DNA of 64,000 nucleotides, taken from NCBI GenBank assembly GCA_011526105.1, contig WYAZ01000099.1, forward strand, positions 2,032 to 66,031. Reading direction: 5' to 3'. Below, in pieces: positions 1,023 to 7,486 of the stretch. The notes under the pieces are model-generated. The model made no database searches. It was not told where the DNA came from and saw only the letters and a list, made by a program, of their open reading frames with translations. Each line of letters opens with the position of its first letter. Within the stretch, counting starts at the first letter, position 1. The stretch comes from Deltaproteobacteria bacterium (GTDB taxonomy: Bacteria > Myxococcota > Kuafuiibacteriia > Kuafuiibacteriales > Kuafuiibacteriaceae). Position numbers and translations under genes: made by a program.

Positions 1023-2588
1023 ATGCAGCTCTGGACGAACGGAAAGACGCACATCCTAGTCACGGGCCGCGGCCTCGCAAGGCTCGCCGCCCAGCGAACC
1101 ATCCACCGCTTTCCGCCTCCGGCCCCGGGAAAGCGGGACGTCGAGCCACCGTTTCCGCTCTTCCTCGCGGTCTTGGATGACGATGGGACCGAGCTCGTCT
1201 TCGGTCGGCCCGACGGGTGGGCGAGTGCCAAGCTCGGCAAGCAGGGCTTCCGAGTCGAGGAGCACACCGCCGAACTTCCGCTCGCACTCGCAAGCCTCGG
1301 TGGCGAGAACGCGGTGGCCCTCGTCGCCGAGCCGCATGCTGCCGGCGGGCTACGCGCGGTGCTGAAGCGAGCGCGAGTGAGCCACAGCAAAGGCATCGAA
1401 CTCCTCGACGCGTCCAGTTTACCGAAGGCCAAGCGCATCACTTGGTGGAAGGATGCTATCTGGGAGGCGGGTGATGTTCCTTGGCCCGAAGACGACATCG
1501 ACGATCTCGACTTCTCGGAGCTCGCGATCGCGGACACCAGAGCAGAGCTCGGCAAGCTCCGCCTCCGCGTTACCCCGCACGGGGTCACCGCGACGAGCAC
1601 ACGCTCGGGCATCGTGGCGGTGTGGGACCGCGAGACGCTTGCGCCAAAGTTCGCCATCCGCATCCCGACGCAGGACGAGGCCGAGATCTTCGCGCACGCG
1701 ACCAGCGAGGGCGTCTTCGCGGTTTTGACCATCGAAGGTCGAGACTCCGCGATGCTTCACTCGAGCCCAGAGGGCAAGCTGCTCGCGAAGCGGCACAAGA
1801 TGGGCCGCGACGCGGCCTACATGCTCGGCGATCCGCTCGTCATCGGGAACGAGGCCTACCTCACGCACGCGGAGACCGCGGCTAAGACCTATCGGGTAGG
1901 TCTGCCCGACCTGAGCGCGAAGGCGAGCAAGGAGTTCGAGGGCGATAAGACCCACATCCTCTATCACGGGGTCTCGGTCGACAGCGGCGCCGCGCTCGTC
2001 GCGTATGGTGATCCGGCGGCAGCGCCCCAGAAGTGGGAGCTTGCGGTCGTTCGTCCAGGAGAGAAGAAGCTCGCGGTCGAAGAACTCATCATCCCCGACT
2101 TCCGATCCCTTTCGCTCGGCGTGGGCGAAGGTGGCCCCAAGCGCATGGAAGGACCGCCGGCGCTCGGTCTCGCCAACAAGGAGCGGGCCTGGCGTACCAA
2201 CCTCGGCGAGCCGCTCACACTCGCCTTCGACATCCCAAGCAACGGCGGTCCGAGCACCGGGCTCTTCTTCGAGCTGAGCGGAGACGTCCTGAAGAACGGG
2301 CTTCTGAAGCCCGTCGAGATCAAGCTCGGCGAGGTGACCGCGCCCTTCCAAGGCAGCGGCGCGAGCTGGAAGGTCGAGCTGCCTCAGGTCCCGATCGAGG
2401 CCGCCTTCGCCGCCGCCAACCCTCGCACGAAGCAGATCTTTCCTCAGTCGAACACCAAGCTCTCGGCCCAGGTTCGATTCGAGAGTGTGGCAAAGGGACA
2501 AGGCCTGCTCATGGTCCGCGTGGGCCCTCTGGCGGCTACGGGTCGCAGCGGCTCAGCGATGGACGGTCGAACCGTCACGATCGGCTGA
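1023..2588 (+). CDS. Hypothetical protein, possibly with a beta-propeller-like middle region
   Basis: 521-aa ORF with typical codon usage and globular composition; no recognised motif. Confidence 0.6.
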   Translation: MQLWTNGKTHILVTGRGLARLAAQRTIHRFPPPAPGKRDVEPPFPLFLAVLDDDGTELVFGRPDGWASAKLGKQGFRVEEHTAELPLALASLGGENAVALVAEPHAAGGLRAVLKRARVSHSKGIELLDASSLPKAKRITWWKDAIWEAGDVPWPEDDIDDLDFSELAIADTRAELGKLRLRVTPHGVTATSTRSGIVAVWDRETLAPKFAIRIPTQDEAEIFAHATSEGVFAVLTIEGRDSAMLHSSPEGKLLAKRHKMGRDAAYMLGDPLVIGNEAYLTHAETAAKTYRVGLPDLSAKASKEFEGDKTHILYHGVSVDSGAALVAYGDPAAAPQKWELAVVRPGEKKLAVEELIIPDFRSLSLGVGEGGPKRMEGPPALGLANKERAWRTNLGEPLTLAFDIPSNGGPSTGLFFELSGDVLKNGLLKPVEIKLGEVTAPFQGSGASWKVELPQVPIEAAFAAANPRTKQIFPQSNTKLSAQVRFESVAKGQGLLMVRVGPLAATGRSGSAMDGRTVTIG

Positions 2589-4904
2589 GCGCGGTCTCCG
2601 GTGCAGACGCGAGGGGTACAGCAGCAGCCCCAGGATCAAGAGGCTCAGACCGGGCGCGTCTTCATCGAGGCTCACGGACCGGCAGCTCGACTCCGACGTA
2701 TCTTTGGTGACGACCGCTGAAGCGCTGAGATCTTGGGGCACAGGCTCCGACGCGGGCTTCGCCGAGACCCCAAGCTCCGCCAGCAGCTCGGTGGCCTCTT
2801 CGACCTCTTCGAGCAGAAACAGCAGGTACCTCACGTCAACCGACACGTTTCGCGATCGATCCGCGCTGTACGCGAAATCACCCGCGATGTTCTCCCACAC
2901 GCGATCGAAGTTGAGGCCAACGAGCTCTCCCTTCCCGTTCAGGACCGGACTCCCCGAGTTCCCGCCCGTGGTGTCCGCGTCGCTGAGAAAGCAGGTGGGC
3001 ACGTCCTCGAGTTGGGCGTCCGCGAATCGGCTCTCCTGCGCCTTCGGGTACGCGGTGCGAACGGACTCCGGGAGCTCGAAGGGCTCCTTGCCGGTGTGTT
3101 TTGCGATCGCGCCACTCAGCGTGGTTTGCGGCACCGCGAACAACCCGTCTTTAGGGCTGTATCCTGTGACCTTTGCGTGGCTGAAGCGAAGTGTTCCGTT
3201 GGCGTCCGGATACACCGGGCCGCTTCGCGAAGCCTTCAACATCGAGACATACTTAGGGCCGAGCTGAAGCATGCGGCCGGCCCGTGCACCTTCCTCCGCT
3301 TCTTTGCCTTCGAGCTCGAGTACAAACCGCTGGGCAAGCTCGAGCATGGGATCCGAAGACCGAGCCAAAGCCTCCTCGTCCGCTGCCTCGAAATGAGCTC
3401 GCACGACCTCTGGGCGATGGAGCGCGGTGTCTTTCAAGACGCTCGCCACGAAAGCTCGAGTGGTCGCCTGAGCGGCGCGTGATCTGGTCGCCGCCGAAGC
3501 GCCTTCCCCGAGTAACACGTCGCCGTGCCCAAGAATGGACTCGAGCATGGCCTGCTCGACCTTTCTGTCGAAATCCCGGAGCCGTCGGTCATTCGCGAGC
3601 TCGAGGTCTCGGACGTTTCGGTCGCGATACATCTCCACGCGATCGAGGTCGTCCTTCTTTCGCTCCCTGGCGCGCCGGATGAGATCGACGGCGACCCCGA
3701 GCAGGTTGGACGCACGGGGCGCGTTCTCGAGCAAAAAGTCCCGGTCGAAGGTCCGATGCCGCTCCTCGGAGAGCTGCGTCAGCTCGGAGAGGACCGAGGT
3801 GTACTGCTCGCCCGCCTTCTGGGCCCAAGCGGAGAGCGCAGCCTCCTCACTTTGCCGGCGCTCGAGCAGCCCCAGCTTGCTGAGGCCGGACATCATGCCT
3901 TCGGCGTTCTTTCGGCGGTTGGCGAGGCTCTTCTTCAGCGCCGCGACCTTGATCTCGATCGCCCTCGCCTTGGCGCCTTGGGACTCGAAGATCTCGATCC
4001 ACTCTCCGTAGAGCGTTCGAACGGCCGGCAGCACCTGCTCGAGCTGCCTCGAGACCTCGGACGCGGGAAGATAGCGGTGGGTTCGACCCGGGTACCCCAC
4101 GACCATGACGAAGGAACTCGGGCGCACGCCCTGGGTCGAGACGGGGAAGTGGGCGCGCGGTCGGTAGGGGATGTTCTTCGGGTCATGGTCGGCGCTCGCG
4201 CCTTCAGGGGAGACGTACGCACGGAGGACGGCGAAGTCGCCGGTGTGACGAGGCCACATCCAGTTGTCGATCTCTCCTCCATATTCGCCGATGGATGACG
4301 GCGGCGCGTACACGAGGCGAAGATCCCGCAGCTCGAGGTAACGGAAGAGCCGATACTCGGAGCCCAAGAAGAACTCCTCGACCTGACAACGCGCGCCGGT
4401 CCTGCCGGCCTCGCAGTCGCGAGCGAGCTGCTTCCTCTTGCGCTCGACCGCCTGGTGTTTGAGCCCGGGCTCGTCCGCCTCCGACGCCGCGCCGCGAACC
4501 TGCTCGGTGACGTCCTCGATTTGCTCGAGCACCCAGAGCTTGCTCCGGCCCACAGCCGGCAGCTCCTCGGCTTTGGAGCGCGCGAGAAAGCCGTTCTTCA
4601 GAAGGTCACGCTCCGGTGAGCTCTGCGCTTGAATCGCCCCATAGGCGCAGTGGTGGTTGGTCAGCATGAGGCCGTCCGCGGATACGAACCCCCCGGAGCA
4701 GCCGGAGTAGTTCACCGCCGCGCTCAAGAGACCGGGGCCATCCTTGCTCCACAAGGCCGAGGGCGAGATCTGGAGTCCTGCGGCACGAAGGGTCTCTTCC
4801 TTCAACTCGAGGATCTGCTTGGGGGTCCATTGGCCCTCGTCGGCCCGGACGGTCGCGGCAGACAGGGCGAGGACCGCGAGGACCAGAAGACCACACACAC
4901 GCAT
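2553..4904 (-). CDS. S46 family dipeptidyl peptidase (DPP11-like) with C-terminal MYXO-CTERM-like anchor
   Basis: Signal peptide then DEGQW; TNHHC (catalytic His); NWMWPRHTGDF; TTGGNSGSP (catalytic Ser); GLNFDRVWE; C-terminal SSC..hydrophobic helix..RLHRR. Confidence 0.9.
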   Translation of the reverse strand: MRVCGLLVLAVLALSAATVRADEGQWTPKQILELKEETLRAAGLQISPSALWSKDGPGLLSAAVNYSGCSGGFVSADGLMLTNHHCAYGAIQAQSSPERDLLKNGFLARSKAEELPAVGRSKLWVLEQIEDVTEQVRGAASEADEPGLKHQAVERKRKQLARDCEAGRTGARCQVEEFFLGSEYRLFRYLELRDLRLVYAPPSSIGEYGGEIDNWMWPRHTGDFAVLRAYVSPEGASADHDPKNIPYRPRAHFPVSTQGVRPSSFVMVVGYPGRTHRYLPASEVSRQLEQVLPAVRTLYGEWIEIFESQGAKARAIEIKVAALKKSLANRRKNAEGMMSGLSKLGLLERRQSEEAALSAWAQKAGEQYTSVLSELTQLSEERHRTFDRDFLLENAPRASNLLGVAVDLIRRARERKKDDLDRVEMYRDRNVRDLELANDRRLRDFDRKVEQAMLESILGHGDVLLGEGASAATRSRAAQATTRAFVASVLKDTALHRPEVVRAHFEAADEEALARSSDPMLELAQRFVLELEGKEAEEGARAGRMLQLGPKYVSMLKASRSGPVYPDANGTLRFSHAKVTGYSPKDGLFAVPQTTLSGAIAKHTGKEPFELPESVRTAYPKAQESRFADAQLEDVPTCFLSDADTTGGNSGSPVLNGKGELVGLNFDRVWENIAGDFAYSADRSRNVSVDVRYLLFLLEEVEEATELLAELGVSAKPASEPVPQDLSASAVVTKDTSESSCRSVSLDEDAPGLSLLILGLLLYPSRLHRRPRSADRDGSTVHR

Positions 4905-5002: not shown

Positions 5003-5797
5003 TCAGAACGCGCCACCCACCTGCAGCAGTCCGTGCTCGACACCAGCGCTCGCCGAGAACCGAACCGGCGCGTCGTGGAGCGCCGGCACCAGGAGCCCGA
5101 GGCTCGTACCCACCGCCGCCCCCACGAGCACGTCGGTAGGGAAGTGATCACCGGCCAGGACGCGACTGACCCCTACGAACGACGCGACCCCAAGCCCGAT
5201 CCCGAGCGCGACATAGGGCATGGGTGAGCTTGGATGGAGACGCTTCAGCGTGGAATACATCGCGACGGCGGCGGCGAAGGTGCCCGCGGTGTGTCCGCTG
5301 AAGAACGAGAGCGAGGTGTTGCCGCGAGTGCGTTCCTCGAGCGAAGCCTCGGTCCCGTAGGCCAGTGGTCTCGGACGCCGAGCGCCCAGGTTGGCGAGCA
5401 CCCCGAGTGCGTTGGACCAAAGGATGGCCTGCGCGACCACCACTGCATCGTTCACGCCGTTCTCGAGCCCCTCATCGAGCACGAGGGTGAGCGCGGCGAG
5501 TCCGTAGGTCGCCGCCACGGTCGCATCACTCACCGTGCGAAAGCCGGCGTCGAAGCGTCCGGCCGCGAAGCGATCGAGGATGAAGACGGAGTCTTTGCGA
5601 CAAGCGTCCGGCCCGCAGAACGGAGGGGCGAGCTCATCCCTCAAGACCCAGCCAAAGGAGATCATGCCCGCCACGACCAGAACCGGAGCATCGACCTCGA
5701 GCCGCAGCTCGTAGGCCGGAAGAGAGGCCGCCGGAGACGGCGCGGCCTCCGGGCTGACGGTGCTGCTCATCGCCACGAGAAGCAGGAGTGGGTTCAT
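5003..5797 (-). CDS. PAP2 family phosphatase
   Basis: RPRP, SFFSGHT and SRVLAGDHFPTDV motifs; ATGA overlap with the upstream gene. Confidence 0.85.
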   Translation of the reverse strand: MNPLLLLVAMSSTVSPEAAPSPAASLPAYELRLEVDAPVLVVAGMISFGWVLRDELAPPFCGPDACRKDSVFILDRFAAGRFDAGFRTVSDATVAATYGLAALTLVLDEGLENGVNDAVVVAQAILWSNALGVLANLGARRPRPLAYGTEASLEERTRGNTSLSFFSGHTAGTFAAAVAMYSTLKRLHPSSPMPYVALGIGLGVASFVGVSRVLAGDHFPTDVLVGAAVGTSLGLLVPALHDAPVRFSASAGVEHGLLQVGGAF

Positions 5798-7356
5798 GGG
5801 TTCCATTCCAAACCGAAGGTCAGACGATACTGACGGTAGTAGAAAGGTACACCCCAAAGGTGGGGGATCGGGAAGGAGAGATCGGCCGGCTCGAGCACGA
5901 GCTGGAAATGATCGCTGACTCGGATGGCCACACCGAGCAGGTTCAGACCGAAGTAGAGGCCGGTGGAGCCTGCTTCGGCCCCCACCAAGTCGAAGAGCAG
6001 CACGCTCGTGCCGATGTGGGCCGTAGTCCGCAGCTCGACTCGGCCCAGCGAGAACCAGTGATAGATCCCGGTGAAGTAGATGTTCAGGGCGCCCGGCGCG
6101 AGCCGGGCCGCGTCGAGCGAGAACCAAGGGTTGATCTCCGCGTCTAGACCCAGGGTGAGATCCTGAAAGACCGGCACGCGCACCCCGCCGGCAAGCGCGA
6201 AGGCCCCGCGATCCAGCGAGGCCGAGCCGCCCACGTACAGACCCAACTGATCGATGGTGCGGCTCGAAGTCCTCACCTCCGAGGCAAGCGCCGGGCTCGC
6301 GAGCAGCAGGAGGCACAGCGCGACGCCCAAGCGGCGACGCCCGAGCACCAGAGCGCCGGCGAAAAGAAGAGCCAGAAGCGCGAGCCCGTGACGACCCCTC
6401 GAAGTGAGCGGCCTCGCCTCTTGGCATGCGCAGTCCGGCATAAGAGCGAGCTCTGCGGCATCACACCAGCGGTTGGTGGCGGTGCAGCCCTCCTCGAGCG
6501 ACAGCCTTCGGTCCAGCACCCCTTGAAGGCGTTCGATGCGACCGCTCCGACCGCCCGCACCGTCGGCGAGCGCACGCAACAGATCGATCGAGGCCGCGAC
6601 GGCGGCGCGTGTGCGCCATCCCGCTGGACCGTCAGAGTCATCGCAGACGTCGAGCGCAGTCACGTGCGCGTGCCCATCCTTTGACTCCGAGTAGTCACTC
6701 GACCTCGTCGAGTCGACGAAGTTCAAGACGTGGCGAATCCGCTCGTCCGCCGGCGCACGGAAGGTGTGTGAATAGCTGTCCTGCAGCGCGTGCAGAGCGC
6801 GGCCCGCGTGAAAGCCGAAGCGACGTACCGGGATCTCTATCTCCCCTCGGAAAGCCAAGTTGACCTCGGTCAAGACGGTCGCCTCTAGATCGATCCGATC
6901 GCTGGTCCCAAGAGCGGCCGAGAGCTCCTTCGAAATGAGGCTTCGGCACGAGGCGATCGCGGATCGATCTCCAGGGTCTCCATCGTCGATCGGAGACCGA
7001 AGACAGTGCTCGGACTGGAGCTTCGGATCGCCATGGACCGCGCTGAGCCCGGGGAGATCACTCGGCGCGACGCCCTTGAGGTCGTTGTGCCGCACGCCGA
7101 CGAGAAGCGCGATCGCCCAGGGGTTGCGCGCGGATTCTGGGATCTCGAAAGGCAGGTCCTCGAGGATGCGCCGCTCCATCTCGTTCAATGCGGGTGGGAT
7201 CGAGCCCTCCGGCCACCCAGCCAACTCGAGCGCGGCGAGGGTCATGCGCTCGTGGCAGCCGTCGGAGAGGGGGGTGTCGATCGTAAACGCGAACGCCGGC
7301 CCGGCACGAAAGGCTGCCACCACCCCCGCCAGGGCCAGAAAGAGCCGAGCACGCAC
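5794..7356 (-). CDS. Secreted Zn-dependent phospholipase C/P1-nuclease-like protein fused through a MYXO-CTERM-like segment to an outer-membrane beta-barrel-like domain
   Basis: Signal peptide; CHERMT, GVRHND, QSEHC and GRALHALQDSYSH metal-ligand pattern; internal CAC-TM-RRR followed by a second h-region ending ALA; alternating beta-strand C-terminal domain ending YRLTFGLEW. Confidence 0.6.
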   Translation of the reverse strand: MRARLFLALAGVVAAFRAGPAFAFTIDTPLSDGCHERMTLAALELAGWPEGSIPPALNEMERRILEDLPFEIPESARNPWAIALLVGVRHNDLKGVAPSDLPGLSAVHGDPKLQSEHCLRSPIDDGDPGDRSAIASCRSLISKELSAALGTSDRIDLEATVLTEVNLAFRGEIEIPVRRFGFHAGRALHALQDSYSHTFRAPADERIRHVLNFVDSTRSSDYSESKDGHAHVTALDVCDDSDGPAGWRTRAAVAASIDLLRALADGAGGRSGRIERLQGVLDRRLSLEEGCTATNRWCDAAELALMPDCACQEARPLTSRGRHGLALLALLFAGALVLGRRRLGVALCLLLLASPALASEVRTSSRTIDQLGLYVGGSASLDRGAFALAGGVRVPVFQDLTLGLDAEINPWFSLDAARLAPGALNIYFTGIYHWFSLGRVELRTTAHIGTSVLLFDLVGAEAGSTGLYFGLNLLGVAIRVSDHFQLVLEPADLSFPIPHLWGVPFYYRQYRLTFGLEWNP

Positions 7357-7486
7357 GTGGGGGGGACTGTAGCAGCCTTGGCCGGAACTCTCTCCTCCGA
7401 ACGGGCGGCGAATCGAGCGGGATTTCTCGGATTGACCGGCTTGGAACTTGGCGGCGGGCCCGAGATCACCCCATCATGAGGGTTCG

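Follow-up and report, generated by a model that had tools for sequence, protein, structure and literature searches.

Can a single bacterial open reading frame (ORF) supply two separate envelope proteins, one released by a sorting enzyme and the other by signal peptidase? This question is raised by a gene in a 64,000-nucleotide stretch of contig WYAZ01000099.1 (assembly GCA_011526105.1; hereafter the window), from a deltaproteobacterium assigned to the Myxococcota order Kuafuiibacteriales. Midway along the predicted product, a tripartite MYXO-CTERM-like tag, of a kind normally found at the C terminus and cut by myxosortase, runs without a stop into what looks like a second signal peptide. An earlier note on the window had proposed from these letters that the gene encodes a polyprotein. 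Comparison with relatives indicates that the gene is most likely an old, conserved fusion of two Myxococcota envelope genes, and we think it probable (about 70%) that its product is one precursor, from which signal peptidase I and myxosortase release a surface enzyme and an outer-membrane barrel.

The gene and its reading frame

The 520-amino-acid (aa) protein is laid out as an N-terminal signal peptide, a 285-aa domain, a MYXO-CTERM-like segment (CxC, helix, RRR), a second signal peptide ending in ALA and a 162-aa C-terminal domain (Table 1), and the genome holds one copy of the gene. The letters and approximate coordinates (6280-6435) from which the polyprotein had been proposed are accurate: the segment from DCAC to GRRR spans residues 308-342 (6331-6435), and RRR-LGVALCLLLLASPALA spans residues 340-358 (6283-6339), with LGVALCLLLLASPALA itself forming residues 343-358. 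There are 178 residues downstream of RRR, so the tag does not lie at the C terminus.

A missed stop or a frameshift at the fusion had been raised beforehand as something that would undo the proposal, and contigs from three studies show no insertion or deletion there. Sequences matching the stretch occur in public DNA and RNA libraries from nine studies, and we aligned four runs from three studies to the gene. A DNA contig from a study other than the likely source (X13) covers positions 5765-7400 without a gap and differs at a single base (7084 G>A), two long RNA-library contigs (X5 and X7) cover 5700-7400 with no differences, and a 151-base RNA-library contig (X17) covers the junction at 6288-6438, again with no differences. 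The RNA-library contigs serve here as a check of the sequence; contigs cannot show transcription, nor do the parts of the gene that X17 does not cover bear on it. In the public annotation this protein (P0002, 508 aa) begins 12 codons later (7321-7356, minus strand), which leaves the signal peptide too short. The GTG at 7356 yields a normal signal peptide (MRARLF…AFA), with no Shine-Dalgarno-like motif visible upstream.

Conservation of the junction

The earlier note had further suggested that one RRR could both close the tag and serve as the n-region of the signal peptide. The expected layout of RRR, h-region and A-L-A is present, and the A-x-A is about 90% kept in homologues. In an alignment of 99 homologues, the junction varies in sequence and in length apart from four elements: the tag cysteine, the arginine cluster, the second hydrophobic stretch and the A-x-A motif. 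The cysteine is kept in all 98 rows that have the region, and Cys311 of the window falls in that column. Four columns of the cluster hold arginine in 96, 90, 80 and 73 of the 99 rows. At the internal A-x-A, scored in 97 rows, position -3 is A in 88 and V in 5, position -1 is A in 91 and G in 6, and the +1 residue is Q, D or E in 72.

The N-terminal cleavage site of the same proteins provides an internal control. There, A stands at -3 in 83 and at -1 in 88 of the 96 rows of alignment A2, and by this measure the putative internal site is conserved as well as the predicted N-terminal one. Directly after the N-terminal site, all 97 rows have an aromatic first mature residue (F, Y or W). Judged from the sequences, the arrangement of tag and signal peptide is far beyond chance. 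A crude rule-based count of junctions gave full agreement with four rules in 177 of 229 proteins, while 31 missed only the strict [AV]-x-A and 18 failed the first rule; we relied on the alignment columns instead.

An internal TTG start at L343 (6328-6330, minus strand) was considered as another origin of the second protein and rejected. Neither the codon nor the residue is conserved in relatives, the signal peptide would be left without a basic n-region, and such a start would not keep upstream ribosomes from reading through.

Fused, split and reordered relatives

We searched 1.84 billion representative proteins at E ≤ 0.001 and obtained 728 relatives. Among 247 family proteins, both domains share a single chain in 229, the enzyme stands alone in 17 and the barrel in 1, which answers the earlier concern that homologues might always be two genes. 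Enzyme-only relatives stop right at the arginine cluster, like ordinary MYXO-CTERM proteins. The sole barrel-only protein, P0222 (193 aa), shares 64% identity with residues 338-520. Its call begins within the tag helix (…LWRRRR-MGLAAL…), and it represents either a gene call truncated at a contig end or a recent split.

A survey of the phylum covered 401 genomes, at least 48 of which gave a match, and 50 loci were examined. Three arrangements of the two parts were found. The arrangement fused in one frame occurs in 21 reference genomes from six families among the 48 Myxococcota genomes with a match; two related genomes hold frameshifted copies of the fused gene (L030 and L033). At seven loci in two genera the enzyme gene is followed by a separate barrel gene: the enzyme stops a few residues past RRR, and the barrel gene opens with Met and a normal signal peptide. 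These neighbours overlap by 4 nucleotides in four loci and by 37 nucleotides in two, and lie 29 nucleotides apart in one; small frame changes are what separates split from fused relatives. Finally, at 16 loci the order is reversed, with a barrel gene that has its own signal peptide standing ahead of an enzyme gene that ends in a terminal tag.

Among these 16 barrel-first loci, two (L039, G345:C326, and L042, G349:C113) have a tag that runs into a lipoprotein signal (…LLLVAC and …LSLTAC, respectively). A Cys-rich domain of about 200 aa follows this signal, a second and independent fusion on the enzyme family. At a further locus (L041, G092:C369), an ORF upstream of the enzyme gene (3515-4651, minus strand) contains two tandem barrel domains by hidden Markov model (HMM), at residues 81-204 and 244-378.

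To place the arrangements relative to one another, a maximum-likelihood tree was built from 45 enzyme domains; L030, L033 and L051-L053, which have a partial enzyme domain or none, were left out. A branch with support of 100/99 sets apart the barrel-first group, made up of its 16 rows and an enzyme-only row from a contig end. Within the fused clade, the enzyme-then-barrel splits appear at two places, both on starred branches. Under the midpoint root, which is provisional, the fusion would be old and would twice have come apart into two working genes, something easily achieved only by a precursor whose internal signals both still worked. That the two proteins occur in three gene arrangements also argues that enzyme and barrel work together.

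The enzyme domain

The earlier note had called the N-terminal domain a Zn hydrolase, and structural alignment supports a fold of that type. AlphaFold2 models of both domains were made from input alignments of 100 rows each, and the enzyme model is mostly helical (predicted local distance difference test (pLDDT) 96.4, predicted template modelling score (pTM) 0.94). Against 48,161 chains, VIA-align placed six members of the phospholipase C (PLC)/S1-P1 nuclease superfamily at the top: the clostridial alpha-toxin N-domain (1olp, Z 9.9), Bacillus cereus phospholipase C (1ah7, 8.9), Listeria phospholipase C (8cqm, 8.3) and three S1/P1-type nucleases (8qjl, 7.1; 5fb9, 6.9; 3w52, 6.6). The seventh chain reached Z 4.5, against at least 6.6 for these six. 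The superfamily alignments begin at mature residue 1, run to about residue 250 and comprise 149-165 aligned residues.

Eight positions are conserved at 97-100% in the family (H12, D69, H94, H166, D170, H174, H208 and D213, mature numbering). Together with the aromatic residue 1, they may mirror the Trp1/His/Asp zinc site of the superfamily. The domain shares the fold of the zinc-dependent phospholipases C and S1-P1 nucleases but only 9-14% identity with them, and it differs in having three conserved Cys pairs and an extra C-terminal helical part.

Neither PF00882 nor PF02265 matched the enzyme domain of this protein, and PF00882 (Zn_dep_PLPC) appeared below threshold in 10 of 72 relatives (13-18 bits against a cut-off of 26.8), always on the HALQDSxxH stretch. 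A family profile gave nothing meaningful against PDB sequences. NCBIfam has no family for the whole protein or its parts, and no Pfam family passed its threshold in the 72 relatives. The ESM Atlas offered leads only, to VWA7_N/Het-C and Zn_dep_PLPC clusters at 0.89-0.92. On the evidence of the modelled fold, the label Zn hydrolase is a reasonable one.

The barrel domain

The C-terminal part had been read as about 160 aa of beta strands forming an outer-membrane barrel, and its 162 aa are indeed modelled as eight strands with short loops (pLDDT 95.2). Foldseek returned 14 matches at E ≤ 0.001; wherever their fold is known, it is a small barrel: the OprF N-domain (4rlc, TMq 0.68), OmpA (1bxw, 0.64), and also NspA, OmpW and PagL. 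Pfam OMP_b-brl (PF13505) matched below threshold (E 0.034, 14.7 bits against a cut-off of 28.7); in relatives it was below threshold in 7 of 72 and above it in none. The aromatic terminus that the earlier note had described holds in part, in that a tryptophan is present near the end of the chain. In the model, the first strand starts 13 residues past the predicted internal cut.

Conserved residues of the barrel (E49, N51, P52, G91, S93, G101, G105, G108, P140, G144, P146 and Q151-R153) lie, in the model, where strands 3 and 5 end and strand 8 begins, as well as in two longer loops. If the barrel is oriented in the membrane as such proteins usually are, these positions would form the outer face, which suits the docking of a surface enzyme, as TraB serves TraA. 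Catalysis of the PagL or PagP type was also considered for the barrel and dropped, since its conserved residues include no invariant His.

Table 1 Features of the fusion gene and of the genes on its strand, with positions in the window
Feature	Positions	Strand	Basis or remarks
Whole gene, enzyme and barrel precursor	5794..7356	-	520 codons plus stop, GTG start, single open frame
N-terminal signal peptide MRARLFLALAGVVAAFRAGPAFA, residues 1-23	7288..7356	-	Read from sequence; predicted cut between AFA and F
Enzyme domain, residues 24-308	6433..7287	-	Predicted zinc phospholipase C / S1-P1 nuclease fold; Cys- and His-rich
Internal MYXO-CTERM-like tripartite tag DCACQEARPLTSRGRHGLALLALLFAGALVLGRRR, residues 308-342	6331..6435	-	D-C309-A-C311, spacer, helix 324-339, R340-R342
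Putative internal signal peptide, residues 340-358	6283..6339	-	RRR n-region, LGVALCLLLLASP h-region, ALA c-region; predicted cut between A358 and S359
Predicted eight-stranded outer-membrane beta-barrel, residues 359-520, begins SEVRT	5797..6282	-	AlphaFold2, Foldseek
PAP2 phosphatase gene, downstream	5003..5806	-	Pfam PF01569, 4.2e-19
S46 peptidase, third gene on the same strand	2553-4904	-	PF10459, 2.9e-200

Processing machinery and similar ORFs in the genome

The genome encodes the components that processing and delivery of the two parts would call on. The myxosortase core (NF040914) scores 123 bits against a 100-bit cut-off, at least 19 proteins match TIGR03901 above its cut-off, and signal peptidase I (148 bits), the GspD secretin (504 bits) and BamA (632 bits) are present. 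The genes for signal peptidase I and myxosortase lie about 16 kilobases apart on the same strand (C189:146903-147583 and C189:163760-164071, both minus).

In at least seven further ORFs of the genome, the frame runs on from an internal MYXO-CTERM-like tag into a new signal. In ORFs on contigs C147 (11211-13190, plus strand), C117 (13069-19455, plus strand), C72 and C73 this is a signal of the A-x-A type, and in ORFs on C75, C166 and C108 it is a lipobox (…LGGC, …AFAC and …LAGC). Those on C117 and C72 close with a second, terminal tag (18.2 and 24.1 bits). The second half of the C147 ORF has an HExxH metalloprotease motif and a tag-like tail by eye.

A proposed route from precursor to products

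We propose the following course of events, in which the precursor would pass through Sec as a hairpin and be cut on either side of it. The N-terminal signal peptide would carry the enzyme domain over the inner membrane and be cut at AFA, before the phenylalanine, exposing the invariant aromatic N-terminus. The tag helix (residues 324-339) would then halt transfer, so that RRR remains in the cytoplasm, and the hydrophobic stretch of residues 343-355 would restart export as an internal signal peptide. Signal peptidase I would cut after ALA358, freeing the barrel for insertion by the beta-barrel assembly machinery (BAM). The enzyme would be left on a two-helix hairpin and would then follow the path of other MYXO-CTERM proteins, with modification at Cys311 and a cut by myxosortase. 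Following the model of Guo, Haft and Wall (PMC11980579), it would carry a lipid on the cysteine, be cleaved by myxosortase and reach the surface by type II secretion. Each precursor would thus yield one enzyme and one barrel. The least certain step is the last, in which the barrel would act as the enzyme's outer-membrane partner, like TraB for TraA.

The split relatives correspond to the predicted products, namely an enzyme with a terminal tag and a barrel with its own signal peptide. A linker of 13 residues would be too short to lead from an inner-membrane helix to the outer membrane, given the usual dimensions of the envelope, and cutting would therefore be needed for a working barrel.

Weighing the evidence

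Cleavage of the polyprotein by myxosortase and signal peptidase, as first suggested in the earlier note, gains from comparison: the fusion is conserved, split forms carry the expected tag or signal peptide, and the machinery is encoded. The check with the TIGR03901 HMM that the note had proposed came out negative for this protein. This and several other points weigh against the proposed route. The processing steps are all inferred, and the action of myxosortase on an internal tag is a proposal in the passages of the published account relevant here (PMC11980579). With TIGR03901.2 we obtained no match at E ≤ 10 for either the whole protein or the 56-aa junction alone, and a model built from the genome's own 19 tags scored the window's tag at -3.2 bits, after a bias correction of 13 bits. 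Just 6 of 61 fused homologues exceed the 20-bit cut-off of TIGR03901.2 in the homologous segment. The barrel ends in …YRLTFGLEWNP, with W at -3 and a last residue that is not aromatic. Foldseek returned no matches at E ≤ 0.001 for the enzyme model, and the assignment of its fold rests on VIA-align Z scores of 6.6-9.9, on Pfam matches below threshold and on the putative ligand mapping.

Some of these points can be set beside results from relatives. At E ≤ 1, TIGR03901.2 matched the homologous segment in 22 of the 61 fused homologues; of ten enzyme-only forms it matched four, none of them over the cut-off. We read the window's putative tag, on which both MYXO-CTERM models fail, as a divergent copy, identified by its three-part architecture, its invariant cysteine and its homologous position. 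As to the C terminus, the barrels of split relatives end in W, L or F.

The poor tag score is where a first alternative takes hold. Signal peptidase I might free the barrel while the internal tag is a relic, the enzyme then staying in the periplasm on a two-helix hairpin in the inner membrane. Besides the failure of both models, this account can draw on the DCAC and charged spacer found in place of the usual GCGC or GCS, and on the standing of internal MYXO-CTERM processing as a proposal in the relevant passages of PMC11980579. It is hard to square with a cysteine kept in 98 of 98 homologues, with internal tags in fused relatives that score at least as well as the terminal tags of split ones (6 of 61 against 0 of 10 over the cut-off), and with the ordinary terminal tags borne by split forms derived from the fused clade. 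We regard such half-processing as unlikely, if worth bearing in mind.

It is also conceivable that the chain is never cut, with the two helices forming a permanent anchor in the inner membrane and both domains lying in the periplasm, or with the protein tethering inner and outer membranes. The hairpin topology fits a stable anchor, and some relatives have long linkers, of up to about 130 residues by a rough measure. An uncleaved protein, however, would have no need to retain A-x-A at about 90%; here the first strand begins just 13 residues after the site, and relatives make both parts separately in either gene order. This makes an uncleaved two-domain protein rather improbable.

The order of passenger and then barrel recalls type V secretion, in which a C-terminal barrel exports its N-terminal passenger through itself, but an autotransporter of this kind is very improbable here. 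The barrel has eight strands with short loops, not 12 or 16 strands; its best matches are of the OprF/OmpA/NspA type, with autotransporter barrels ranking far lower; passenger and barrel are set apart by two membrane helices with a cytoplasmic RRR loop; and the barrel gene is separate from and ahead of the enzyme gene in 16 loci. That sequencing or assembly merged two genes through a missed stop or frameshift is scarcely credible: frameshifted copies in two related genomes (L030 and L033) and the small frame changes between split and fused relatives show how it could come about, yet the contigs from three studies are free of gaps, and 21 genomes and 229 of the 247 family proteins share the fusion.

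Neighbouring genes

The stop codon of the fusion gene (TGA, 5794-5796) overlaps the ATG of the downstream PAP2 phosphatase gene (5795-5797) as ATGA, and a further ATG lies at 5806. From this coupling the earlier note had suggested a module for scavenging phospholipids or nucleotides, an idea that fared poorly. PAP2 adjoins the fusion in only 6 of 50 related loci (this genome and five others); a further case is weak, and no split locus has it as a neighbour. The proposed module thus depends on gene order in this lineage alone, and would be at most a lineage-specific addition, for which the case is weak. The S46 peptidase encoded further along the strand has a tail that is weakly MYXO-CTERM-like (…SSCRSV…LSLLILGLLL…RRPR), with 11.1 bits against the genome tag model and 21 residues after the match. 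Upstream, the neighbour is a divergent purE.

Relation to known systems

Internal MYXO-CTERM motifs in ORFs are described as rare in the relevant passages of Guo, Haft and Wall (mBio 2025, PMC11980579). These passages present one case, MXAN_5598 of Myxococcus xanthus, an adhesin with an internal tag followed by a barrel with an OmpA domain, and read it as a fusion of two genes. The proposal made there is that the N-terminal part undergoes processing and ends up anchored on the surface; the authors also liken the arrangement to TraA/TraB and cite other sortase systems for tripartite tags that work away from the C terminus. As described there, MXAN_5598 resembles the present gene in having an internal MYXO-CTERM and then an outer-membrane beta-barrel in one ORF. 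It differs in that its N-terminal part is a large adhesin and its C-terminal part a barrel with an OmpA domain, where the gene studied here would combine an enzyme of PLC fold with a bare eight-stranded barrel. A second signal peptide, a conserved A-x-A and split relatives are not mentioned in the passages of PMC11980579 that deal with MXAN_5598. The TraA/TraB pair, on the same account, is like the enzyme-then-barrel splits in consisting of a MYXO-CTERM surface protein and a barrel partner encoded by overlapping ORFs. It differs from the present pair in that TraA is a receptor rather than an enzyme and TraB bears an OmpA domain. The link between enzyme and barrel here is one that we infer.

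A literature search for bacterial polyproteins with an internal signal peptide and signal peptidase returned nothing related, and the words 'internal' and 'fusion' are absent from the Haft preprint. The FbcH cytochrome b/c1 precursor of Bradyrhizobium is a bacterial polyprotein that signal peptidase divides at an internal signal peptide; it is without a sorting tag, and its products are inner-membrane proteins. For other enzymes, sorting signals away from the C terminus were reportedly described by Navarre and Schneewind in 1994 (sortase A) and by Abdul Halim et al. in 2017 (archaeosortase A).

One fusion of this kind is thus already in print (MXAN_5598, PMC11980579), and the kind is little studied. 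Added here are a large, unnamed enzyme-barrel family, a junction whose conservation can be measured, and natural controls in the form of split and reordered relatives.

Implications for Myxococcota

Back-to-back hairpins of tag and signal peptide may be a general route by which Myxococcota obtain two or three envelope proteins from one ORF, with myxosortase cutting on one side of the hairpin and signal peptidase I or II on the other. In the family described here, the fused state would then be ancestral and would be kept for one-to-one delivery, through the same translocon, of a lipid-anchored PLC-like surface enzyme and a dedicated barrel. The outer face of that barrel would be a dock or surface-display factor, which would extend the TraA/TraB principle to enzymes. 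We offer this wider picture tentatively, and hold it to be possible more than probable.

The family provides a test case for the myxosortase pathway, in which the same pair can be compared directly across its fused, split and reordered forms. It also brings to light two unnamed families, a distant enzyme of the PLC/P1-nuclease fold and a small barrel always encoded with it. Genome annotation should cease to treat such ORFs as single proteins. Should the barrel turn out to be the enzyme's partner in the outer membrane, a need for such partners may extend to MYXO-CTERM surface proteins at large.

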